Under the pieces are notes generated by a model, which saw only the letters and a list, made by a program, of their open reading frames with translations, had not been told where the DNA came from and did no database searches. 64,000 nucleotides of DNA from an uncultured Sphingorhabdus sp. (GTDB lineage Bacteria; Pseudomonadota; Alphaproteobacteria; Sphingomonadales; Sphingomonadaceae). Of the stretch, positions 10,555-61,866 are shown in pieces; positions within the stretch are counted from its first letter, which is position 1, and each line of letters begins with the position of its first letter. The translations under genes and the position numbers were made by a program. The DNA lies in assembly GCA_964597055.1 (NCBI GenBank), contig CAZQWC010000008.1, forward strand, positions 121,603-185,602. The letters run 5' to 3'.

Positions 10555-11748
10555 ATGGATATGGAATTCACCGCCGAAGACCTCGCTTTCCGTGACGAGG
10601 TCCGGGCATTTATCGCCGAAAATTACCCGCAGGAACTGCGCGGAAAGCAGGATGAAGGGGACGAACTGGGCAAAGAGGATTTCCTCGCCTGGCACCGCAT
10701 TTTGCACAAAAAGGGCTGGGTCGCCCCCGCATGGCCGGTTGAATATGGCGGCACGGGCTGGAGCCCCACCCAGCGCTATATCTGGTCGGAAGAAACCGCC
10801 CGCGCCGATTGCATCCGCCTGATGCCCTTCGGCCTGTCGATGGTCGGCCCGGTCATTTACACCTTTGGCACACCCGAACAGAAAGCCAAATTCCTTCCCC
10901 GCATCCTTTCGGGTGAGGATTGGTGGTGCCAGGGCTATTCGGAACCTGGCTCGGGCTCGGACCTTGCCTCGCTGCGCACCAAAGCCGTGCGCGATGGCGA
11001 ACATTATGTCGTCAACGGCCAGAAAACCTGGACGACGATGGCACAGCATGCCGATTGGGGTTTCTTCCTTGTCCGCACCGATTCCGATGCGAAGCAGCAG
11101 GAGGGCATTAGCTTCCTCCTTGTAGACATGAAAACGCCTGGCATCACCGTGCGCCCGATCATCACCTTGGGCGGCGAGCATGAAGTGAACGAAGTCTGGC
11201 TTGAGGACGTCCGCGTTCCGGTTGAAAACCGCGTTTACGAGGAGAATAAAGGCTGGACCTGCGCCAAGTTCCTGCTTGCCCACGAACGTACGGGCATTGC
11301 CGGCGTCGCGGCCTCAAAGCGCGGTATCGAGCGCATCAAGGATATCGCCCGTTCCGAACAGGATGGCGATCGTCCGCTGCTCGCCAACCCCTTCTTCAAG
11401 CGCAAGGTGGCCGAGCTGCAGACCGACCTGACTGCACTCGAATTCACCGAGCTGCGTAGCCTGGCGGGTGAAGCGGCAGGGCGTGGCCCCGGACCGGAAT
11501 CGAGCCTGCTCAAGATCAAGGGCTCGGAAATCCAGCAGCGCATTACTGAACTAGCATTGGAAGCGGTCGGCCATTATGGCGCGCCTTACTTCCGTGGCTT
11601 TGGCGAGGGCGACAACGAGCATCCGATCGGCCCGGACTATGCGCACCGCACCGCGCCGAGCTATTTCAACATGCGCAAGACCACCATTTATGGCGGATCC
11701 AACGAGATCCAGCATAACATCATCGCCAAGATGGTTCTGGGTCTTTGA
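10555..11748 (+). CDS. Acyl-CoA dehydrogenase, large subunit of a PimC/PimD-type pair
   Basis: WCQGYSEPGSGSDLASL, NGQKTWTT and TIYGGSNEIQ motifs; SD GAGGAG. Confidence 0.92.
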   Translation: MDMEFTAEDLAFRDEVRAFIAENYPQELRGKQDEGDELGKEDFLAWHRILHKKGWVAPAWPVEYGGTGWSPTQRYIWSEETARADCIRLMPFGLSMVGPVIYTFGTPEQKAKFLPRILSGEDWWCQGYSEPGSGSDLASLRTKAVRDGEHYVVNGQKTWTTMAQHADWGFFLVRTDSDAKQQEGISFLLVDMKTPGITVRPIITLGGEHEVNEVWLEDVRVPVENRVYEENKGWTCAKFLLAHERTGIAGVAASKRGIERIKDIARSEQDGDRPLLANPFFKRKVAELQTDLTALEFTELRSLAGEAAGRGPGPESSLLKIKGSEIQQRITELALEAVGHYGAPYFRGFGEGDNEHPIGPDYAHRTAPSYFNMRKTTIYGGSNEIQHNIIAKMVLGL

Positions 11749-50524: not shown

Positions 50525-51097
50525 TCAGATATTTGATCTTTCTTCCTGAACCGATTCGAGTGCTCGGTAGAGCGTGGCATGGTGGCATTTGAGGAGTTTG
50601 GCGGCTTCTCTGACCGACGTTCCCTCGTTCACCAAGCGACTTCCCAGCATAATTTGGTCTGCTGTCAGCTTCGGTGGTCGACCAAAACGGACCCCGCGCG
50701 CCTTTGCCGCGATACGACCAGAGCTTGTGCGCTGGTGGATGAGCGCGCGCTCGAATTCTGCGATCCCGGCAAAAACGGTCAACACCATTCGACCGGCGGG
50801 GGAAGTTGTGTCAGCCCAAGGCTCAGCCAATGATTTAAGGCCGGTGCCGTGCTCATTCAAACGTTCCGCAATTTCGAGAAGGTCGCGGGTAGAGCGTGCG
50901 AGGCGATCGAGTCGGGTGACAATGACCACATCTTCGGAGCGAATGTTATCGAGCAACCGGGCCAATTCGGGCCGATCTCGGCGTGCTCCTGAAATCTTCT
51001 CTTCAAAAATCCGCGTGCAGTCGGCAGCATTGAGTGCTGCCCTCTGGAGCGTGAGGTCCTGATCGTCCGTCGAGACGCGTGCATAGCCAATCAACAT
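50525..51097 (-). CDS. tnpR: Serine recombinase / Tn3-family resolvase
   Basis: MLIGYARVSTDDQ, VTRLDRLARS, DTTSPAGRM, AEFERALI, GVRFGRPPKL and C-terminal HTH. Confidence 0.93.
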   Translation of the reverse strand: MLIGYARVSTDDQDLTLQRAALNAADCTRIFEEKISGARRDRPELARLLDNIRSEDVVIVTRLDRLARSTRDLLEIAERLNEHGTGLKSLAEPWADTTSPAGRMVLTVFAGIAEFERALIHQRTSSGRIAAKARGVRFGRPPKLTADQIMLGSRLVNEGTSVREAAKLLKCHHATLYRALESVQEERSNI

Positions 51098-51210
51098 GTC
51101 GCATATATGTATCGAAACTAGAGGCTTTAGCAACAGATATTTGCGACACGCATTGATGCCATTATTCATGGCTCACCGACAGTGTCGCAGAAATTAGGAG
51201 TTATGCGACA
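51097..51210. promoter_or_regulatory. Putative res site (resolvase subsites)
   Basis: TGTCGCA (51097)...TGCGACA (51142) and TGTCGCA-N14-TGCGACA (51183-51210), overlapping the tnpR start. Confidence 0.7.
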
Positions 51211-52267: not shown

Positions 52268-55264
52268 GTGCCAGGCACATTTTACGAGCAGCCGATCCTT
52301 AACTCGCCTTACAGCGAGCCGCGCTACCATCACCCCTTGGATGATCACGGGCAGCCGCTTGACCAACCCGCAGTTGAAGGGCGTCGGACATCCAAGTTTA
52401 TCGTTCCCGTCCCGAAATCGCGAAAAGTGGCAGCAGCCGCGCAGGCTTCGCTCGACCTCGAAACCTATACACCCAATAGCCTGATTAACGAGATCAGAGG
52501 CTATGTCGATGCTTGGCGCAAGACACCAAACCCGGCAGATTGGGGAGTCACGCCAACTACGGCCCGGCTTTTGGACTATTGGCGCAATCACAATTTTTCA
52601 TCTGTTCGCCCCTTCTTTTGTCAGGTCGAAGCAGTCGAAACGATTATCTGGCTAACCGAAGTCGCGCCGAAGCGAGCAGCTACGAAGGGTCTGCTAGATC
52701 AAATCCAGAGAGCCAATGACGAGGCAAATCCGGCGCTATTCCGACTAGCCATGAAGATGGCGACCGGCAGCGGCAAAACAACGGTCATGGCGATGCTGAT
52801 CGCATGGCAGACGGTTAACGCCGTACGGCGCGATTCGAAGCTATTTAGCCGCGCCTTCCTGATCGTTGCGCCGGGGATCACCATCAAAGACCGCCTGCGC
52901 GTCCTGATGCCAAGCGCGCCCGATAATTATTACGAAGAGCGCGAGCTAGTTCCGCCTGAAATGCTGAACGAAGTGAAGCGTGCTGAGATTGTGATCACCA
53001 ATTATCACGCCTTTCAGCACCGCGAGACCGGCCCGACCGGCAAAGTCGCGAAAGGCCTGCTTCAGGGTAACGACCCTGAGCCGATCCGCACCACCGAAAG
53101 TGACGGCGAAATGCTGCGCCGGGCTTGTGGCCATCTTCTCAATCACAAAAACGTCAATGTCATCAATGATGAGGCGCACCACTGCTATCGCCACAAGACC
53201 GGCGGCGAAGAGGAAAAGCTGACCGGCGACGACAAGAAGGAAGCCGAGGCTAACGAGGAAGCTGCCCGGCTGTGGATCAACGGCATCGAGGCATTGAAGC
53301 GCAAAGTCGGAGTGCGTGCCGTCCTTGATCTATCCGCCACACCTTTCTTCTTACGTGGCTCGGGCTATCCCGAAGGCTTCCTCTTCCCGTGGGTCGTTTC
53401 GGATTTCAGCCTGATGGATGCGATTGAATGCGGTATTGTCAAACTGCCGCGCGTTCCGGTCTCTGACAATCTCCCACAGACAGAGACACTTGTTTACCGC
53501 GATTTATGGAAACATGTCGGTAAACACCTGCCCAAAAGTGCCGCTGCTGCTGGCAAACTTGACCCCTCCAGCCTGCCCAACGAGTTGAAGACCGCACTTT
53601 ACGCACTCTACAGCCACTACAAAGAAACCTTTGAACTGTGGGATCGTGAGGGCATCGACGTGCCCCCAGTTTTCATCGTGGTTTGCCAGAATACCGCCAT
53701 TTCCAAGTTAGTGTTTGAATGGATCGCTGGCTTTGAACGCGACTTGGGCGAGGATGGCAGTGATCGCGCACGATTTGAGATCGGCAATCTTGAACTATTC
53801 AGCAATTACGATCCCACAGGCGGACGTTTCCCGCGCCCCCGAACGCTCCTGATCGACTCCCGCCAGATCGAAGCGGGCGACGCGCTCGACAAAAGTTTCC
53901 GCGACATGGCCGAAAGCGAAATCGAGCAATTCAAGCGCGAACTGAACCAGCGCGATGGCGCGGGTAGCGGCGACAAGGTGAGCGATGGAGAACTGCTCCG
54001 CGAAGTGATGAACACTGTTGGGCGCAAGGGTAAGCTGGGCGAGCAAATCCGTTGCGTCGTTTCGGTCTCAATGCTGACCGAGGGATGGGATACCAACACC
54101 GTAACGCACATCCTGGGCGTCCGCGCGTTCGGCACGCAATTGCTGTGTGAACAGGTCGTTGGGCGTGGCCTGCGTCGGCAGTCCTACGATCTCGATCCCG
54201 AAACCGGCCTGTTCCCGGTTGAATATGCCGACATTATGGGCATCCCGTTCGACTTCTCAGGCAAGCCGCAGACGGCAACGCCAATCAAGCCGCGCCCCGT
54301 CACGCGCGTTCACGCGATCAAAGAGCGTAGCGAGCTTGAGATCATCTTCCCGCGTATCAGCGGCTACCGTAAGGAATTGCCAGAAGAGCGGCTTGAGGCA
54401 GAGTTTGACGAAGAGTCCAAGCTGATCATCACCACAGCCGATATTGGGCCGACATCTGTCTTAATGGAGGGCATTGTTGGCCAAAGCACGCTGATCACAA
54501 CGCAGGTGCTGGAAAGCCTTCGCCCGTCGGAAATCAGCTTCAATCTCGGCAAATATTTACTCAACAATCATTTCCGCGACAATGATGGCCTCGCCAAGCG
54601 GCACTTGTTCCCGCAAATTCAGCGGATTGCCCGGCGCTGGATCGATGGCGGTTATCTGGTTTGCGCAGGCGTGCCGATTGGGGCGATCCTCTATGAAGAC
54701 CAACTCGCCCGCGCCGCGCAGAAGATCAACATTGCGCTGTCCCGAGCGAGCGACAGCCCGGTGAAGGCGGTGCTTGATCCTTACAATCCCAAGGGATCGA
54801 CGCGATTTGTCAACTTCATCACCTCGAAGGCGTGCTGGACGACCGGGGCGCGGCCTCCCAAAAGCCATATCAGCCATGTCGTGCTCGATAGCAGCTGGGA
54901 GGAGCAGCTGGCAGGCGTGCTGGAAAACCATCCGCGCGTCATCGCCTATGCCAAGAACCAGGCATTGGGATTTGAAGTGCCTTATCTGGATGGCGCGGTC
55001 TTGCGCCGCTACGTCCCCGATTTTCTGGTGCGGCTTGATGTCGGTCAGGCCGAGCCTTTGAACCTTGTGCTGGAGGTGAAGGGCTATCGCGGCGAGGATG
55101 CCAAGCTCAAGGCTCAAACGATGCGCGACCTGTGGGTGCCCGGCGTCAACCAGATGGGCGGCTTTGGCCGGTGGGCGTTTGCGGAATTTAGCGATTGGGC
55201 GGTGATGGAAGAGGATTTCGCGGCGCTGGTTGAGCGGTTGATTGGGAGTACGGGGCATGAGTGA
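52268..55264 (+). CDS. res: Type III restriction endonuclease Res subunit (BPTD_3080-like, res-before-mod subfamily)
   Basis: KMATGSGKT, NDEAHH, SVSMLTEGWD and C-terminal YVPDF...LEVKG PD-(D/E)xK nuclease. Confidence 0.93.
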   Translation: MPGTFYEQPILNSPYSEPRYHHPLDDHGQPLDQPAVEGRRTSKFIVPVPKSRKVAAAAQASLDLETYTPNSLINEIRGYVDAWRKTPNPADWGVTPTTARLLDYWRNHNFSSVRPFFCQVEAVETIIWLTEVAPKRAATKGLLDQIQRANDEANPALFRLAMKMATGSGKTTVMAMLIAWQTVNAVRRDSKLFSRAFLIVAPGITIKDRLRVLMPSAPDNYYEERELVPPEMLNEVKRAEIVITNYHAFQHRETGPTGKVAKGLLQGNDPEPIRTTESDGEMLRRACGHLLNHKNVNVINDEAHHCYRHKTGGEEEKLTGDDKKEAEANEEAARLWINGIEALKRKVGVRAVLDLSATPFFLRGSGYPEGFLFPWVVSDFSLMDAIECGIVKLPRVPVSDNLPQTETLVYRDLWKHVGKHLPKSAAAAGKLDPSSLPNELKTALYALYSHYKETFELWDREGIDVPPVFIVVCQNTAISKLVFEWIAGFERDLGEDGSDRARFEIGNLELFSNYDPTGGRFPRPRTLLIDSRQIEAGDALDKSFRDMAESEIEQFKRELNQRDGAGSGDKVSDGELLREVMNTVGRKGKLGEQIRCVVSVSMLTEGWDTNTVTHILGVRAFGTQLLCEQVVGRGLRRQSYDLDPETGLFPVEYADIMGIPFDFSGKPQTATPIKPRPVTRVHAIKERSELEIIFPRISGYRKELPEERLEAEFDEESKLIITTADIGPTSVLMEGIVGQSTLITTQVLESLRPSEISFNLGKYLLNNHFRDNDGLAKRHLFPQIQRIARRWIDGGYLVCAGVPIGAILYEDQLARAAQKINIALSRASDSPVKAVLDPYNPKGSTRFVNFITSKACWTTGARPPKSHISHVVLDSSWEEQLAGVLENHPRVIAYAKNQALGFEVPYLDGAVLRRYVPDFLVRLDVGQAEPLNLVLEVKGYRGEDAKLKAQTMRDLWVPGVNQMGGFGRWAFAEFSDWAVMEEDFAALVERLIGSTGHE

Positions 55265-55265
55265 T

Positions 55266-55321
55266 GTACGATTTTCGTACGAAATTAATTGCGAAGTAGG
55301 ACATTACGTCCTATGTAAGCT
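55266..55321 (+). promoter_or_regulatory. Palindrome-rich internal promoter/operator region between res and NYN
   Basis: GTACGA-TTT-TCGTAC, TTTCGTACGAAA (55273-55284), TAGGAC-ATTAC-GTCCTA (55297-55313). Confidence 0.45.
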
Positions 55322-55329
55322 TCACATCT

Positions 55330-55394
55330 GCCCCTTGAGAGTAGGTTGGCCCGTTAATCGAGGGCCGTACCGAAATCTTGGGGCTTATTTTTTT
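55330..55394 (+). ncRNA. Structured RNA leader of the NYN gene, ending in a U-tract
   Basis: GCCCC..GAGA / TCTT-GGGGC outer stem, GGCCC/GGGCC inner hairpin, then TTATTTTTTT; 14 nt before the ATG. Confidence 0.6.
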
Positions 55395-55408
55395 CAGGGC
55401 CAGCGCAT

Positions 55409-56230
55409 ATGAATGGCGGCCCCATCCTTACCCGACAAATTGCAATCATGATCGACGGCGGTTTCTTTCTGCGCCGTGCGGAATCAATGGGTTTAATTCG
55501 GCGCATCGGTGATGTTGATACAATCGCCGCTCTGTTGCGGCGCATGTGCCGCCGTCATGTCCAGATGCTGACGGGGCAAGACGGCAAAAACTGGCACCGT
55601 CACATTTACCGCATATTTTATTATGACGCGCATCCCTATTCCGGCGTCGCCCACCATCCGCTTCACAATCAGCAATTCTTCTATGAAAAAAGCGACATGG
55701 CCGTATTCCGGCGCGCGCTGTTCGAACGATTGCGGCAAGAGCGCAACGTGGCGCTCCGCCTAGGCGAGGTTATCCGGCACGATGAATGGGTGATCCCCAC
55801 GCACAAGCTAAAGCCGCTTTTGCCTTCACGGGATTGGTTCGCCGGGATCGATTTTGACGCAGTGGACGATCAGGGCCGGATCACGCTTTCCGCCGAAGCA
55901 CTGGAAACGGCAAAGCGGCTGCAGGGCAAATGGCAGAATTTGCAGAACGACGATGTGTCACTAGATCTGCGTCAAAAGGGTGTTGATATGCGGATCGGGC
56001 TGGATATCGCTGCTCTCGCACTCAAAAGGTTCGTAAACACGATCATCCTTGTAACTGGCGACAGCGATTTTGTGCCTGCCGCCAAACTGGCCCGACGCGA
56101 AGGAATACAATTCATCCTCGATCCGCTTTGGCAACCGCGCAAGGTGGATGAATTGCTTGAACATATCGATGGCCTGCAATCCGGCCTCCCCAAACCCAGA
56201 CCACCCAAACCGGCAGGAAACCCCGCATAA
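55409..56230 (+). CDS. NYN-domain (LabA/DUF88, PIN-fold) ribonuclease
   Basis: IMIDGGFF, QKGVDMRIGLD and LVTGDSDFVPAAKLARREG motifs; stop overlaps the mod start (TAATG). Confidence 0.9.
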   Translation: MNGGPILTRQIAIMIDGGFFLRRAESMGLIRRIGDVDTIAALLRRMCRRHVQMLTGQDGKNWHRHIYRIFYYDAHPYSGVAHHPLHNQQFFYEKSDMAVFRRALFERLRQERNVALRLGEVIRHDEWVIPTHKLKPLLPSRDWFAGIDFDAVDDQGRITLSAEALETAKRLQGKWQNLQNDDVSLDLRQKGVDMRIGLDIAALALKRFVNTIILVTGDSDFVPAAKLARREGIQFILDPLWQPRKVDELLEHIDGLQSGLPKPRPPKPAGNPA

Positions 56231-59169
56231 TGGCCCGCGCCCCGAAATCGCCTAAATCCGTTGATGCGCTGAAGCATGATGCGGCATCGCGCCGAAATAT
56301 TCCTACAGCGGAGATGGAGAGTTTCTTCCTGCGGGAAGAGGATAATGCGCCGATGCCGCCGGTGGCTTATCCGCGCGCGCGGCCGTTGGCAGCGGGGGAG
56401 ACGCGGACGGAGGATGAGGTTTCCAGCCCCGAGCTGATCTGGAACGGCGCGAAGATTAAAATAACGCCCGCGCAGATGGAACAGCTTGCCACCACCGGCG
56501 AGCTGGAGCTGGGCGATGCGCAACTGGTGTGGCGGGGGAAGGATACGCAGGACTGGCAAGACCTGATCGTCAATGTGCCGCCGCTCTATATTCAGGAGAA
56601 GATCCACCCCAAGGCGATCATCGACGATCTGAAACGCCGGGCGGCGCAGAACAAGGAGGCGGCCAGCGCCGCGCCTGATCTGTTCGCCGATTTCAACGGT
56701 GTGCCGCCGGATGCGCGCGCGGAATTTTACCAGCACGACCAGCACTGGTCGAACCGGATGATCCTGGGCGACAGCCTTCAGGTGATGGCCAGCCTGGCCG
56801 AGCGCGAATCCTTACGCGGTAAGGTGCAGTGCATCTATTTCGATCCGCCCTACGGGATCAAATTCAACAGCAATTGGCAGGTATCGACGCAAAGCCGCGA
56901 CGTGAAGGACGGCAAGCAGGCCGACATCAGCCGCGAGCCCGAACAGGTGAAGGCGTTCCGCGATACCTGGAAGGACGGCATCCACTCCTACCTCACCTAC
57001 CTCCGCGACCGCCTGACCGTGATGCGCGACCTGCTGACCGACAGCGGCAGTATTTTTGTGCAGATTGGCGATGAAAATGTGCATCGGGTGCGCGCGGTGA
57101 TGGACGAGGTGTTTGGGGAAGAGAATTTCCGCTCCTGCATTTACTTTGCCACCACAGGAGGCCTTGCGACGAATGGGTTAAGCCGCATCGGGGATTACGT
57201 TCTTTGGTTTTCGAGGTCGGATCAGCCCAAAATTCGCCCGCTCTTTGTCGAGAAGAGGGGCGCCGATGACGATACAAGTGCCTACAAAAGTATCGAATTG
57301 TTGGACGGGACGCGCCGTCGTCTCACCGTAGCCGAACAGCAAAACACCGAATTGCTACCGGAGGGATCGAAGGTATTCCGCATTAGCGATTTATGTGGTC
57401 AGGGTCCGCCTAATCAGCCGACACCTTTCGATTTTGATGGCATCACATACAATCCGACCAAGAGCAGCCATTGGAAGCCAAACTACCCGAACGGGATGCG
57501 CCGTTTAGCCCGTAGCCAGAGATTTTACGGCACCGGAAAAACTCTAAACTACGTCCGCTATTTCGAAGATTACGCCGTGTCTCCATTCAATGATGTATGG
57601 CTAGACACCGGTCACTCGGGTTTCGCCTACGATAAGCTCTATGTCGTGCAAACTGCAACAAAAGTCATCGAACGCTGCATCCTGATGGCGACCGATCCCG
57701 GCGATCTCGTTCTCGATCCCACCTGCGGCTCTGGCACTACTGCCTATGTCGCCGAGCAATGGGGGCGGCGCTGGATCACGATGGACACCAGCCGGGTCGC
57801 GCTTGCGCTGGCCCGCACCCGCATCATGGCGGCGCGATACCCTTGGTATTTGCTCGCCGACAGCAAGGAAGGCCGCGCCAAGGAAGCCGCGCTCACTCAG
57901 CGCGTGCCCGCCGAAACGCCCGTCCATCACGATATCCGCCAAGGCTTCGTCTATGAACGCGTGCCGCACATCACACTGAAAAGCATCGCCAACAATCCGC
58001 TGATCGATGAGATCTGGGAGAAGTGGCAGGCGGTGCTTGAACCACTGCGGGCGGCGTTGAATGCGGCCTGCGGCGAGACGTGGGAAGAATGGCAAATTCC
58101 GCGTGAATTGCCCGCGACCACTCCGCCATCTGCCGCCGATCCTCACGCCAAATGGTGGGAGGCGCGCATCGCCCGCCAGCAGGAAATCGACGCCAGCATC
58201 GCCGCGCGCGCCGATGTGGAATATCTTTATGACAAGCCCTATCAGGACAATGCCCGCGTCCGCGTCGCGGGGCCGTTCACCGTCGAAAGCCTCTCCCCCC
58301 ACCGCGTCCTTCCCGCCAGCGAAGAGGAGCTTATCGAAGAGGTTGAGGCTGCCGAGGGCAAACGCCGCCGCGTCACCGGCGATGCGGTGGACAGCGATTT
58401 CGTGCCCAATGTGCTCGATTACCTCAAATCCGAAGGCGTGAAGCAGCAGGACAAGGGCGACCGCATCACCTTTGAAAGCCTGTCCCCCTGGCCCGGCCAC
58501 TGGATTGGCGCGCAGGGCGTTTTCATGGAGGGCTCGGAAGGCCAGCAGGTGGAGCGCCGCGCGGCCATATTGATCGGGCCGGAATTCGGCACGCTGGGCC
58601 GCGCCGACCTCGTTGCCGCCGCGCGTGAGGCCGCCGATGCGCGCTTCGACCTCGTCATCGCCTGCGCTTTCAACTTTGACGCCCATTCATCAGAACTGGG
58701 CAGCCTCGGGTCTTTGCGCATCCTGAAGGCGCGCATCAACCCCGACATGCAAATGTCCGGCGAGCTGAAGAATACCGGACGTGGAAACATGTTCATCGTC
58801 TTTGGCGAACCCGATGTGGAGATATTGGACGACGGCGGCGAAACCATCCGCGTGAAGGTGAACGGCGTCGATGTGTTCGACCCCAATACCGGCGATATCC
58901 GCAGCAACGACACCAAGGGCATCGCCGCATGGTTCATCGACACCGACTATAACGAAGAAAGCTTTTTCGTCCGCCACGCCTATTTCCTCGGCGCGAACGA
59001 TCCGTACAAATCACTGAAAACTGCGTTGAGGGCGGAGATTGATGAGGAGGCGTGGGCTACGCTCTATGCCGACACCTCCCGCCCGTTCGAGCGGCCAGCA
59101 GGCGGCCGGATTGCGGTGAAGGTGATCAATCACTTCGGCGATGAAGTGATGAAGGTGTTTGGGGTTTAG
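56230..59169 (+). CDS. mod: Type III RM Mod subunit (beta-class N6-adenine methyltransferase, long C-terminal extension)
   Basis: YFDPPYG (motif IV), then a variable TRD, then VLDPTCGSGTT (motif I); directly linked to Res. Confidence 0.93.
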   Translation: MARAPKSPKSVDALKHDAASRRNIPTAEMESFFLREEDNAPMPPVAYPRARPLAAGETRTEDEVSSPELIWNGAKIKITPAQMEQLATTGELELGDAQLVWRGKDTQDWQDLIVNVPPLYIQEKIHPKAIIDDLKRRAAQNKEAASAAPDLFADFNGVPPDARAEFYQHDQHWSNRMILGDSLQVMASLAERESLRGKVQCIYFDPPYGIKFNSNWQVSTQSRDVKDGKQADISREPEQVKAFRDTWKDGIHSYLTYLRDRLTVMRDLLTDSGSIFVQIGDENVHRVRAVMDEVFGEENFRSCIYFATTGGLATNGLSRIGDYVLWFSRSDQPKIRPLFVEKRGADDDTSAYKSIELLDGTRRRLTVAEQQNTELLPEGSKVFRISDLCGQGPPNQPTPFDFDGITYNPTKSSHWKPNYPNGMRRLARSQRFYGTGKTLNYVRYFEDYAVSPFNDVWLDTGHSGFAYDKLYVVQTATKVIERCILMATDPGDLVLDPTCGSGTTAYVAEQWGRRWITMDTSRVALALARTRIMAARYPWYLLADSKEGRAKEAALTQRVPAETPVHHDIRQGFVYERVPHITLKSIANNPLIDEIWEKWQAVLEPLRAALNAACGETWEEWQIPRELPATTPPSAADPHAKWWEARIARQQEIDASIAARADVEYLYDKPYQDNARVRVAGPFTVESLSPHRVLPASEEELIEEVEAAEGKRRRVTGDAVDSDFVPNVLDYLKSEGVKQQDKGDRITFESLSPWPGHWIGAQGVFMEGSEGQQVERRAAILIGPEFGTLGRADLVAAAREAADARFDLVIACAFNFDAHSSELGSLGSLRILKARINPDMQMSGELKNTGRGNMFIVFGEPDVEILDDGGETIRVKVNGVDVFDPNTGDIRSNDTKGIAAWFIDTDYNEESFFVRHAYFLGANDPYKSLKTALRAEIDEEAWATLYADTSRPFERPAGGRIAVKVINHFGDEVMKVFGV

Positions 59170-59178
59170 GGGGAAATC

Positions 59179-59796
59179 ATGCCGAAGACAGTCGAGTGGT
59201 ATCCTAAAATTCGGAACCAAAGCCTCGCCCTTGCGGTGCGTGAGGCTGGCTTTGATCTAACAATGTTTGATGAATATTCGGAAGCAACACAGACCGAAAT
59301 TCGGAAACGCGCTATCAAAATTGTTCTCCGAAACATTGCAGAGGAATTTGAGAACGTCACTGGCAAGGAGCTATCCGACATACGCCAAGGTGTGTACGTC
59401 ATTTGTGTTTCTAGTCCTTTTACAATCGGATACGAGTCGGGATGTAGCGAGGTAATTTACATCGGCATCGGTAAGATCGCATCGCGATTGGAATCTCATT
59501 TCAACAAAAGTCTTTTCGATTTTATGATGAGCGTTGCAGGCGCAAATTTCGACTTTTATCTGACCGAGCCAAAAGGCTCTCCTGGTGATTTGTACTACAA
59601 GCACATCGAATATATGCTTCTCGAAAAGTTTTGGGATAAGCATGATTGCTATCCGCTCCTGAATACCAACGCAGGCAGTCGCAAAGAATTTGACGAAATA
59701 GGGAAGGGTTGGGACAAGCCGCTTAAGGCATCGGGTAAAAAGCCGATTTGGGAAATTCGCGCGACCAAACATTGCGAATTTGCAAAGTTGGATTGA
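59179..59796 (+). CDS. GIY-YIG-like nuclease
   Basis: GVYVI...VIYIGIG...RLESH...IEYMLLE...PLLN matches the GIY-YIG R/E/N catalytic layout; visibly AT-richer. Confidence 0.7.
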   Translation: MPKTVEWYPKIRNQSLALAVREAGFDLTMFDEYSEATQTEIRKRAIKIVLRNIAEEFENVTGKELSDIRQGVYVICVSSPFTIGYESGCSEVIYIGIGKIASRLESHFNKSLFDFMMSVAGANFDFYLTEPKGSPGDLYYKHIEYMLLEKFWDKHDCYPLLNTNAGSRKEFDEIGKGWDKPLKASGKKPIWEIRATKHCEFAKLD

Positions 59797-61866
59797 ATGA
59801 ACTTCCTCATCGCCGACACCTTCACAGCATCCTTCAACCGCCTGTCAGGGCAGGATCAGAAGGCGGTGAAAGCGAGCGTGTTCGACCTGCAAATGGACCC
59901 AACGGGCAACGGGCTACAACTTCACCGGATTGATCAATCAAAAGATGCAAACTTCTGGTCGGCGCGGGTCAACCGCGATGTCCGGCTGATCGTCCACAAA
60001 ACCACAAGCTCGATGCTGGTTGCCTATGTTGATCATCATGACAAGGCCTATGCCTGGGCCGAACGCCGCCGGATTGAAGCGCATCCGAAAACCGGTGCGA
60101 TCCAGATCGTCGAAGTGCGCGAGTTGGTGGAGGAGGTTGCGCCACCCGAAACCTTCGATTTTGTCTTTCCGGCACAAACCGCCCCCGCAGCATCCGAAAG
60201 CCTGCGCCACTTTGCCTCGCTCAGCGATGAAGCCTTGCTGTCTGTTGGAGTGCCCGCGGATTGGTTGGCCGATGTCCGCGCGGCAAGCGAGGACGATTTC
60301 TTCACCCTCGCCGATCATTTGCCCGCAGAGGCAGCTGAGGCCCTTCTGGAATATGCGGATACGGGCAAGCTTGTCGTGCCCGCGCCGGTAGCGGCAGCCG
60401 ATCCCTATACCCACCCCGATGCACTGCGCCGCATCCGCCCGATTGCCGATCAGGTAGAGCTCGAACAGGCGCTGGCCTTCCCTTGGGAAAAATGGGGCGT
60501 TTTTCTGCACCCTTCGCAACGCGAAATTGTGGAACGGAGTTATTCCGGGCCAGCTCGTGTCGCCGGTTCGGCGGGTACCGGCAAGACCGTGGTCGCATTG
60601 CATCGCGCGGTCAGGCTTGCACGCGAGAACCCCGCCGCGCGTGTGTTGCTGGCCAGCTTTTCACAACCGCTTGCAGATGCCTTGACCAAAAAGGTGTCAG
60701 TGCTTGCGCCCGATACCGGCACCGTCGTTCCACGTATTACGACTGCTTCATTCCAAGGTATCGCAGATCAACTGCATCAGCTTGAACATGGCGTGCGGCC
60801 ACGCATTGCGTCTGAACCTGTCCTTCGCGAGCGGATAGCAGAAGCGGCAAAGTCGTTTCAGATAACCGGCTTTTCAGAACGCTTCCTGCTTTCCGAATGG
60901 ACCAACGTGATCGACGCGTGGGGGATCAGGACGGAGGGCGAGTATGTAGATGTGCAGCGCATGGGTCGCAAAGCCAGGTTGGGGCCGAAACAACGCGAGC
61001 GCCTTTGGCCCGTCTTTGACGCTGTTCGCCAAGCCTTGGCCGCCGAACGTTACACCACTTGGCCAGTTGTATTTTCAGACTTGGCCCAGCGCTTTGAGAG
61101 CAAAACTGCCAAGCCGTTTGACCATATCCTGATCGATGAAGCACAGGACCTAGGACCGTCAGAACTGCGTTTTTTCGCGGCCATTGCGCCCGACCATTCA
61201 GACGCGCTTTTTCTGGCTGGCGATTTGGGGCAACGCATTTTCCAGCATCCTTTTTCGTGGAAAGGTTTGGGCGTCGATGTGCGCGGACGGTCCTTCACAT
61301 TGAAAGTTTGTTATCGAACATCGCAGGAAATCCGCCAAGCTGCTGACGGATTGTTACCCACTGTGTTGCGGGACGTCGACGGCAATGAGGATGAACGGCG
61401 CGGGACAATTTCGGTGTTCAGCGGACCGGAACCTTATGTAAAAATCAATGCTTCGACCGGCGAGGAATCGGCCATCGTACGTGCCTTCATCGAGAAGGCT
61501 CTGGCGGACGGGATCAGCGCGAATGAGATTGGTATTTTTGTTCGATCTCCTGCCCAGGTTGAACGCGCGCTCACATGCGTTTCAGACATTGCAGGTCGGG
61601 AACAGATTACGGTGAATGTAATGCATCTCGCTAAAGGCCTGGAGTTTCGCGCGGTCGCAATAATGGCCTGTGATGAGGGCATCCTCCCCTTGGATGAACG
61701 GGTCGCAGAAGCCACTGACGATGCGGAACTGGACGACGTTTACGAGACCGAGCGCCGGTTGCTATATGTTGCCTGTACGCGGGCTCGAGAACGATTGATG
61801 GTGAGTGGGGTCGCCCCCGGATCGGAATACCTCAACGATCTAAATTCGGCACAAAACACCGACTAG
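59797..61866 (+). CDS. SF1 UvrD-like helicase with N-terminal RelE/ParE-like domain
   Basis: GSAGTGKT, IDEAQD, GDLGQRI, YRTS, HLAKGLEF and LYVACTRA; N-terminal about 88 aa (FTASFNRL...FWSARVNRDVRLIVH...YVDHHD). Confidence 0.88.
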   Translation: MNFLIADTFTASFNRLSGQDQKAVKASVFDLQMDPTGNGLQLHRIDQSKDANFWSARVNRDVRLIVHKTTSSMLVAYVDHHDKAYAWAERRRIEAHPKTGAIQIVEVRELVEEVAPPETFDFVFPAQTAPAASESLRHFASLSDEALLSVGVPADWLADVRAASEDDFFTLADHLPAEAAEALLEYADTGKLVVPAPVAAADPYTHPDALRRIRPIADQVELEQALAFPWEKWGVFLHPSQREIVERSYSGPARVAGSAGTGKTVVALHRAVRLARENPAARVLLASFSQPLADALTKKVSVLAPDTGTVVPRITTASFQGIADQLHQLEHGVRPRIASEPVLRERIAEAAKSFQITGFSERFLLSEWTNVIDAWGIRTEGEYVDVQRMGRKARLGPKQRERLWPVFDAVRQALAAERYTTWPVVFSDLAQRFESKTAKPFDHILIDEAQDLGPSELRFFAAIAPDHSDALFLAGDLGQRIFQHPFSWKGLGVDVRGRSFTLKVCYRTSQEIRQAADGLLPTVLRDVDGNEDERRGTISVFSGPEPYVKINASTGEESAIVRAFIEKALADGISANEIGIFVRSPAQVERALTCVSDIAGREQITVNVMHLAKGLEFRAVAIMACDEGILPLDERVAEATDDAELDDVYETERRLLYVACTRARERLMVSGVAPGSEYLNDLNSAQNTD

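Follow-up and report, generated by a model that had tools for sequence, protein, structure and literature searches.

A conserved, covarying hairpin RNA accompanies genes for NYN-family predicted ribonucleases in a type III-like restriction-modification locus and on mobile elements

We analysed a window of 64,000 nucleotides (nt) from an uncultured Sphingorhabdus sp. (contig CAZQWC010000008.1), in which a type III-like restriction-modification (RM) locus encloses a small structured RNA followed by the gene of a predicted NYN ribonuclease. All parts of the locus lie on the forward strand. It opens with res, the gene of a 998-amino-acid type III-like restriction subunit (helicase/endonuclease; 52268 to 55264; PF04851, ResIII), which also matches NCBIfam NF046055 (BPTD_3080 family restriction endonuclease) at 1249 bits. 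Downstream come the RNA element, of about 70 nt (55324 to 55394), the gene of a 273-amino-acid NYN/LabA-like PIN-fold ribonuclease, hereafter NYN (55409 to 56230; PF01936), and mod, encoding a type III-like N6/N4 DNA methyltransferase (56230 to 59169; PF01555; PADLOC MTase_III, 1200 bits). These profile matches, from Pfam, NCBIfam and PADLOC, confirm the RM context that an initial annotation of this DNA had assigned to NYN; res lies 5' and mod 3' of it. The ATG of mod overlaps the NYN stop codon by one base (ATAATG), an arrangement that places mod in a predicted operon headed by the RNA element. A Res protein with a superfamily 2 helicase domain and an N6/N4 Mod methyltransferase share one locus, as expected of type III RM systems, while the gene order res-X-mod and an extra UvrD-like helicase are atypical for that type.

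Folding, a covariance model and covariation agree on one long hairpin with a 5-bp G+C-rich closing stem, two predicted internal loops (in one of which AGUA would face GA(A)) and a covarying upper stem. After the 5' tail ACAUCU (55324-55329), the closing stem P1 pairs GCCCC (55330-55334) with GGGGC (55380-55384). Inside it follow the short helix P1b (55337-55338 with 55376-55377), the internal loop with AGUA (55340-55343) opposite GAA (55372-55374, within the DNA linker CCGAAA at 55370-55375), and the stem P2 (55345-55352 with 55362-55370), which contains the inner hairpin GGCCC (55348-55352) with GGGCC (55362-55366) and carries the apical loop (55353-55361). Directly 3' of the closing stem runs the T-tract of the DNA, or U-tract of the RNA, TTATTTTTTT (55385-55394), and the NYN start codon lies 14 nt past it at 55409. 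The 55-nt two-stem structure of the initial annotation, its linkers, T-tract and 14-nt spacing to NYN are thus all present where they had been placed. RNAfold gives the 68-nt stretch -29.2 kcal/mol. Its dinucleotide shuffles reach -17.4 +/- 2.9 (z = -4.07), with no fold of equal stability among 200 of them; the fold is thermodynamically unusual, far beyond chance. RNAfold also finds in the spacer a second, weaker hairpin (GGCC...GGCC, 55398 to 55421, forward strand), which takes in the start codon of NYN together with part of the Shine-Dalgarno region. Inspection by eye shows similarly placed hairpins, of variable sequence, between U-tract and start codon in many homologous loci.

The element is conserved well beyond the window. 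In a sample of 80 genome loci that encode NYN relatives (40-55% identity) from many phyla, a hairpin of about 58 nt with its U-tract stands just 5' of NYN in every one. About 42 of these loci show the order Res-RNA-NYN-Mod, often with the UvrD-like helicase next, and in all of their res-NYN spacers the motif reads (C)ACAUCC-GCCCC-UUGG-cAGUA-(variable stem with the 9-nt loop NNNNAUCCN)-GCCGAA-cCCcU-GGGGC-UUUU... The stem sequences vary among loci yet remain complementary. When 39 copies are aligned with MAFFT, standard pairs make up 97.4% of cells and 43 double (compensatory) changes occur, spread over 7 of the 15 pairs, whereas shuffled alignments contain 9.8 +/- 2.5 and none of 500 reaches 43; sliding the 3' partners by one to three columns lowers pairing to 14-60%. 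The covariance model built from this alignment finds a single copy in the window (55322-55394, 77 bits, E = 1e-19). Among the 80 loci it finds a strong match (E < 1e-8) directly 5' of NYN in 69 and a weak one at the same place in 8; the remaining three have variant hairpins that by eye are visibly related. Adding phage and plasmid versions gave an alignment of 84 copies, fitted to the model and therefore leaning toward its structure, in which 98.4% of cells are paired, 166 cells show double changes (34.7 in shuffles) and compensatory changes occur in all pairs. Conservation and covariation of a structure upstream of NYN homologues, the check that the initial annotation had set beforehand, is thus what we find, in 80 of 80 loci and, in the model-fitted alignment, 15 of 15 pairs.

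With covariation in more than 150 related loci, the hairpin is confirmed at the level of sequence comparison as a real, strongly conserved structured RNA and not a chance terminator, and there is good support for considering the motif a candidate new RNA family. At gathering score, Rfam 15 has no match in the window. A sensitive Rfam scan of 55100-55600 gave a sole, sub-threshold match to the terminator-like TEG147 (E = 0.015), and a scan of 10 diverse homologous loci gave none on the motif. The searchable literature contains no description of the motif and no link between NYN and an RNA partner, and no copy was found in E. coli genomes. Two other ways of reading the structure were rejected. 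On the opposite strand about 29 G-U cells of the 84-sequence alignment would become A-C mismatches, and the promoter and U-tract lie on the forward strand; an alternative GGCA/UGCC pairing within the internal loop fails in the window, and a G-C to A-U swap at columns 17/68 of the motif alignment backs the chosen register.

The most conserved part of the RNA is its unpaired positions: the 5' AUCC (83-94%), AGUA (95-100%), the apical-loop AUCC (82-99%) and, within GAA, the G (95%) and an A (99%). The AGUA opposite GAA is what we take to be a signature of loop-E/sarcin-ricin (bulged-G) motifs, here a candidate; motifs of this kind are frequent protein-binding sites. The window carries AUCU (55326-55329) in its 5' tail and AUCG (55357-55360) in its apical loop, where the consensus has AUCC at both places. 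One small RNA thus holds two identical, highly conserved single-stranded AUCC elements, for which no conserved GGAU partner was identified and which might be recognition or cleavage sites.

A predicted sigma70-type promoter (55289 to 55317, forward strand) precedes the hairpin, with TTGCGA at -35 (55289-55294), a 17-nt spacer and TATGTA at -10 (55312-55317). When 70 loci were piled up without gaps, anchored at the first G of P1, TTGAC(A/G) appeared at -42 to -37, a TAnAAT-like box at -19 to -14 and a purine at -6, followed by the conserved AUCC. The fixed spacing of these boxes from the hairpin predicts a transcription start about 6 nt before the stem, near 55324, from which a structured RNA of about 70 nt would arise. 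A simple scan for consensus promoters does not list the window promoter, whose -10 box lacks the final T. By this spacing, the RNA appears to be a transcription unit of its own and not the terminated tail of the res transcript, so that the terminated leader of the initial annotation does not hold as a leader of res. Within the spacer between the two boxes lies an inverted repeat, TAGGAC-N5-GTCCTA (55297-55313); relatives of the sphingomonad type (L003 and L002) have similar repeats, TAGGAC..GGTCCTA and TAGGG..CCCTA, at this position, and the repeat may be an operator for a dimeric regulator. We treated as chance a possible upstream antiterminator, in which 55252-55264 would pair with 55322-55334 (13 nt, 77% complementary) and could compete with P1 in res transcripts: over 39 loci, the mean length of the best upstream complement is 3.3 nt, whereas shuffles give 3.8 nt.

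At the other end of the RNA, the 10 nt after P1 contain on average 7.6 T in 151 loci; since the loci examined average about 50-67% G+C, this T-richness is no background effect. The 5-bp GCCCC/GGGGC stem and the T-run behind it, conserved in these 151 loci, have the sequence features of an intrinsic terminator, and we predict that the closing stem and U-tract form one. A simple terminator scanner misses it, its 'loop' being a 45-nt structured insert. The start codon of the following gene lies 15-60 nt downstream, often inside the second hairpin. A divergent version is found on a Campylobacter jejuni pTet-type plasmid (L202, 2880-3000), which keeps UUGGCAGUAACC...GGCAAACCC, has no adjacent U-tract, shows instead a separate hairpin with a T-rich run and is too divergent for the covariance model. 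A hairpin with a T-run is terminator-like, as is the sub-threshold match to TEG147, and an open reading frame crosses the motif in several loci (the HIRPLAVRPL frame; in the window a 56-amino-acid frame at 55242-55412). On these grounds the element might simply terminate res as an ordinary intrinsic terminator, placed before NYN by chance, or might encode a short peptide; we consider both highly improbable. Conservation of sequence, length and unpaired loops from phylum to phylum is not a property of terminators; the motif accompanies NYN into loci without res; a promoter stands directly 5' of it; and the stem substitutions are compensatory, not synonymous. The reading frames have no consistent start codon and would begin 5' of the predicted transcription start. 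Covariation and that start led us to reject the HIRPLAVRPL coding reading, and covariation, linkage to NYN and the promoter together effectively exclude a plain res terminator or a small peptide.

Transcripts across the element are present as assembled contigs. One 178-nt contig of a wastewater metatranscriptome is identical to 55237-55414, its flanks being uncovered. RNA sequencing (RNA-seq) of cultured organisms, with libraries of a kind that cannot reveal a 70-nt species, covers a near-identical stand-alone module with a Marinobacter-type NYN (L093). In two runs a contig at 2-5 times the depth of its flanks starts at 10562 or 10569, where 10560 was predicted, and ends about 65 nt into the coding sequence; in other runs transcription reads in from upstream. 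In the RNA-seq contigs covering L093 10559-10757, the RNA, the leader and the first 80 or so nt of NYN are identical among Marinobacter-type strains whose sequences diverge by about 5% directly 5' of them. Coverage there repeatedly stops 60-150 nt into NYN, perhaps because the 5' fragment is stable or because processing occurs at this site.

The NYN protein matches PF01936 at 35 bits (cutoff 24.2), and in 20 homologues D16, D73, D193, D199 and D218 are invariant, with D220 nearly so (at least 90%). The above-cutoff match and the conserved acidic metal-binding residues together place it among NYN/LabA-like PIN-fold proteins, and the retained catalytic residues suggest that the nuclease is probably active. 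Its subfamily counts more than 7,500 relatives, labelled NYN or LabA/DUF88 in databases. PADLOC assigns the protein only its NYN model, with a weak match; the PDB holds no sequence relative; and the AlphaFold model has a mean predicted local distance difference test score of 78. A 2017 survey of the PIN superfamily listed bacterial NYN.COG1432 proteins as of unknown function and reported no RNA partner (PMC5499597).

NYN and its RNA also occur outside RM loci. About 35 of the 80 genome loci are stand-alone, lacking Res and Mod, and have no other conserved neighbour; nor did the related genome loci reveal a conserved protein partner beside NYN. The minimal conserved unit is thus promoter, RNA and NYN. 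The NYN family is found on 246 viral contigs, where its place is the lysogeny region, with Xre-type repressors and serine recombinases as neighbours, and about 36 of 48 viral NYN loci have a match to the motif, the rest having variant hairpins. It is also carried by conjugative plasmids of Xanthomonas, Campylobacter jejuni (pTet type) and Aeromonas salmonicida (pAsa5) and by a Thermus megaplasmid, with the motif or variant hairpins 5' of NYN in the Xanthomonas, Thermus and Aeromonas loci. On the Thermus plasmid NYN is flanked by genes for a helicase-related protein and an N6-methylase, both unrelated to the Res and Mod of the window. The Xanthomonas vesicatoria plasmid pLM159.3 (L203) additionally encodes a C4 antisense RNA (2185-2276; RF01695, 67.6 bits), about 0.7 kb 5' of its RNA-NYN module and on the opposite strand. 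Prophage lysogeny regions, conjugative plasmids and RM islands are typical sites of toxin-antitoxin (TA) and abortive-infection genes, which we count in favour of a control of NYN by the RNA. Moreover, NYN was never seen without the RNA in genome loci, while the RNA was seen without NYN, an asymmetry expected of a toxin and its antidote.

The association with NYN is deep and exclusive, no protein partner is conserved, the catalytic residues are intact, the terminator is kept and the pair resides on mobile elements; all this points to an RNA and a nuclease that work together. We favour, at about even confidence, a scheme in which the RNA controls the NYN ribonuclease. Attenuation would serve this control in cis, and in trans the RNA would probably bind the nuclease or be cut by it. 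RNA and NYN gene would form a mobile two-part module. In cis, the built-in terminator and the start-codon hairpin would let only a fraction of transcripts pass to NYN, and such leaky control would yield the short RNA in excess over NYN transcripts. In trans, this RNA would most likely bind NYN or be cleaved by it and thereby restrain the nuclease. In the window the module sits between res and mod of the type III-like RM system and would also supply the promoter and leader for mod, translationally coupled to NYN.

ToxI/ToxN and RCd22/AbiF operate in this manner. In the AbiF/RCd22 system of a Clostridioides difficile prophage, an upstream structured RNA lowers transcription of the toxin and neutralises the protein by binding (PMC12373285). 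The likeness extends to a non-repeat structured RNA directly 5' of a predicted RNA-targeting toxic protein, to a prophage location and to the layout promoter-RNA-toxin (PMC12373285). However, AbiF (Abi_2) is HEPN-like whereas NYN is PIN-like, the RNAs are unrelated (RCd22 has two abiF motifs, the present element one hairpin whose closing stem is the predicted terminator), and AbiF/RCd22 is experimentally characterised whereas RNA-NYN is known from sequence and transcript contigs. Type III TA systems (ToxIN, CptIN, TenpIN) likewise comprise a constitutive promoter, an antitoxin RNA, a Rho-independent terminator and an endoribonuclease gene, occur on plasmids and phages, have no protein antitoxin and are linked to phage defence (PMC8860590, PMC5086642). 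At the sequence level the window shows the same layout: a promoter of its own precedes the RNA, and a Rho-independent terminator separates it from the RNase gene that follows. Type III antitoxins, however, are tandem direct-repeat arrays, whereas Tandem Repeats Finder and a repeat search found no array in 55100-55600 and the homologues are single-copy; the toxins there are ToxN, CptN or TenpN (Kid/MazF-like) rather than a PIN-like NYN; and the toxin there processes the RNA and forms cyclic RNA-protein complexes, both purely hypothetical for NYN. The layout fits type III TA loci, and AbiF/RCd22 even better. Of the type III TA-like module proposed by the initial annotation, the promoter-RNA-terminator-RNase layout, the constant NYN partner and the acidic residues stand, but the repeats are absent and the toxin is not ToxN-like; with no repeat array and a different toxin fold, RNA-NYN is by sequence not a member of the type III family.

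More tentatively still, RNA and NYN might represent a class of RNA-protein modules, for toxin-antitoxin control or abortive infection, that is very widespread yet has so far gone unrecognised, a possible but doubtful extension. As antitoxin it would have a single-copy RNA, in which an internal loop is loop-E-like and the closing stem doubles as terminator, and as toxin a NYN ribonuclease. In RM loci the module would serve as a second-line guard like PrrC: phage shut-off of host transcription or an attack on the RM system would let the short-lived RNA decay and free the RNase. PrrC and RloC are anticodon nucleases embedded in type I RM loci, and PrrC is kept latent by the RM proteins. The likeness is a ribonuclease gene inserted among RM subunit genes, suggestive of a back-up layer of abortive-infection type; the difference is that PrrC latency depends on RM proteins and not on an RNA, that the nuclease family is another one and that the NYN module also occurs alone, without RM. 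PIN-like nucleases apparently co-transcribed with RM subunits have been described by Matelska et al. (2017) for type I systems, whereas the RM link here is type III-like (PMC5499597). The same survey proposed ImmA/IrrE-Xre (DUF955-HTH) with DUF4411 as TA-like, and an ImmA/IrrE plus DUF4411 pair is one of the alternative cargoes behind the RNA described below (PMC5499597).

Several observations weigh against control of NYN by the RNA. The PF01936 match is partial, covering only profile positions 73-120 in the C-terminal third, and a Foldseek search of the NYN model against the PDB returned nothing at E <= 0.001. Contact between RNA and NYN, and toxicity of NYN, are proposed by analogy, type III toxins being neutralised by direct binding of their RNA. 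Since mod lies behind the terminator and must be expressed, termination cannot be tight. Contigs of L093 run from the motif through the U-tract into NYN and so show read-through. That NYN is never found without the RNA would follow equally from an obligatory promoter and leader. Finally, the RNA is not confined to NYN. In a reverse test, we scanned metagenomes with the 5' half of the motif and counted copies with the full motif and enough downstream sequence: NYN follows the RNA in 70 and something else in 18 (about 20%). The 18 comprise ORF6N and then mod (6), mod directly (2), NYN remnants (2), Bro-N (3), an OLD-like ATPase-Toprim protein (2), a helix-turn-helix (HTH)-ImmA/IrrE gene with DUF4411 (2) and one unclear case; as intact RNA precedes other genes, it can serve genes other than NYN. 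About 27 further metagenome matches and all four viral pattern matches lacked the full motif and were set aside as chance 18-mer matches. Starting at the end of res, the locus L187, with NYN, and the locus L090, with ORF6N, share about 97% identity across promoter, RNA, leader and the first 8 nt of the coding sequence; past this point they are unrelated.

These cargoes raise the alternative of a cis-acting leader that is independent of NYN, a portable cassette of promoter and hairpin of which NYN is merely the commonest cargo; we regard it as possible though rather unlikely. The cassette would then be recognised by a universal factor (RNA polymerase, for instance, or an RNA-binding protein or RNase of the host) or, like a riboswitch, by a small ligand, and would act on the next mobile or defence gene by attenuation, pausing, antitermination or 5' stabilisation. 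Such a leader would account for the intact motifs (74-94 bits) before ORF6N, Bro-N, OLD-like and ImmA/IrrE+DUF4411 genes or mod directly, for the shared head of L187 and L090, for a locus (L033) with a second copy in front of mod, and for the read-through into NYN. The RNA begins at about +1 of the transcript, and unpaired-loop sequence conserved across phyla fits a universal partner. Yet NYN is the sole constant neighbour across Firmicutes phages, Bacteroidota, Chloroflexota, Thermus and Campylobacter plasmids, while the other cargoes all fall within a recent proteobacterial-type radiation, and several of them are visibly deletions or replacements of NYN (L155 and L175 keep NYN remnants). A transcript start 6 nt before P1 leaves no room for an upstream antiterminator, no conserved upstream complement was found, and no Rfam riboswitch or leader family matches. 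As to the cargoes themselves, the exchange between L187 and L090 (also seen in L132 and L157) falls exactly past the first 8 nt of the coding sequence, ATGAGCAG. This is a clean cargo swap behind a constant head, the middle position of res-X-mod behaving like a cassette socket. The RNA head precedes the HTH-ImmA/IrrE (Peptidase_M78) and DUF4411 (PIN-like) genes in L140 (10079-11706) and L195, and an OLD-like AAA_21+Toprim protein in L182 and L197.

The coupling of NYN to mod bears on a further scenario. The NYN stop and the Mod start overlap or lie at most 10 nt apart in 34 of 41 loci, so that in RM contexts mod depends on the promoter and leader of the RNA. The hairpin could be a pure autoregulatory substrate, which NYN cuts at the 5' end of the mRNA for itself and mod in a negative feedback. 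In the RM context this would be an RNA-level analogue of a controller (C) protein tuning mod; the RNA would be no antitoxin and NYN would not need to be toxic. We consider this unlikely. Precedents for RNases that regulate themselves are RNase III on the rnc leader, RNase E on the rne 5' untranslated region and Regnase-1, which has a PIN/NYN-like fold and recognises stem-loops, on its own mRNA. They share with the present element a conserved stem-loop in the nuclease's own mRNA, but have no built-in terminator and no promoter placing the stem-loop at +1, nor do they form mobile modules. In keeping with this scenario, the NYN-mod transcript begins with the hairpin; NYN is flanked by a helicase or nuclease gene and a methylase gene both in the window and on the Thermus plasmid, whose systems are unrelated; and the second RNA copy of L033 lies before mod. 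A cleavage target, however, has no need of the universally kept U-tract, which suggests instead that a terminated RNA or its U-tail matters; where the module stands alone on prophages and plasmids, no gene besides NYN is there to be regulated; and cleavage of the RNA by NYN is purely hypothetical.

An RNA that restrains a neighbouring RNase is a known principle, while this RNA family, its design as a single hairpin with built-in terminator and its pairing with NYN appear to be undescribed in Rfam 15 and the searchable literature. The bacterial NYN/LabA-like family is very large, and an obligate, covarying RNA partner gives one large branch of it a testable mechanism. If the RNA does restrain the RNase, RNA-based toxin control would gain a new toxin fold and a repeat-free design of antitoxin RNA, and the module would be a candidate defence or addiction system on phages, conjugative plasmids (Campylobacter pTet-type, Xanthomonas) and RM islands. 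If the RNA works without NYN, it would be a portable promoter-leader cassette common to several defence-type genes, which would also be new.

The remaining features of the window lie on both sides of the module. Behind mod, on the forward strand, are a 205-amino-acid frame (59179 to 59796) and a UvrD/GajB-like superfamily 1 helicase (59797 to 61866; Pfam, PADLOC). The former has no match in Pfam, NCBIfam or PADLOC and is a singleton that clusters with no open reading frame called in the 80 related genome loci; in about 17 of these loci a UvrD-like helicase follows Mod. Directly 3' of the res stop codon, in an A+T-rich stretch, a small hairpin (GTACGA-TTT-TCGTAC, 55266-55282) may be a weak res terminator. 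About 1.1 kb 5' of res, on the reverse strand, lies a serine resolvase/invertase gene (50525-51169; PF00239 with HTH_7), whose proximity suggests that the RM/NYN cluster sits on a mobile island. The sequence of the window organism was found solely in sludge and bioreactor metagenomes.

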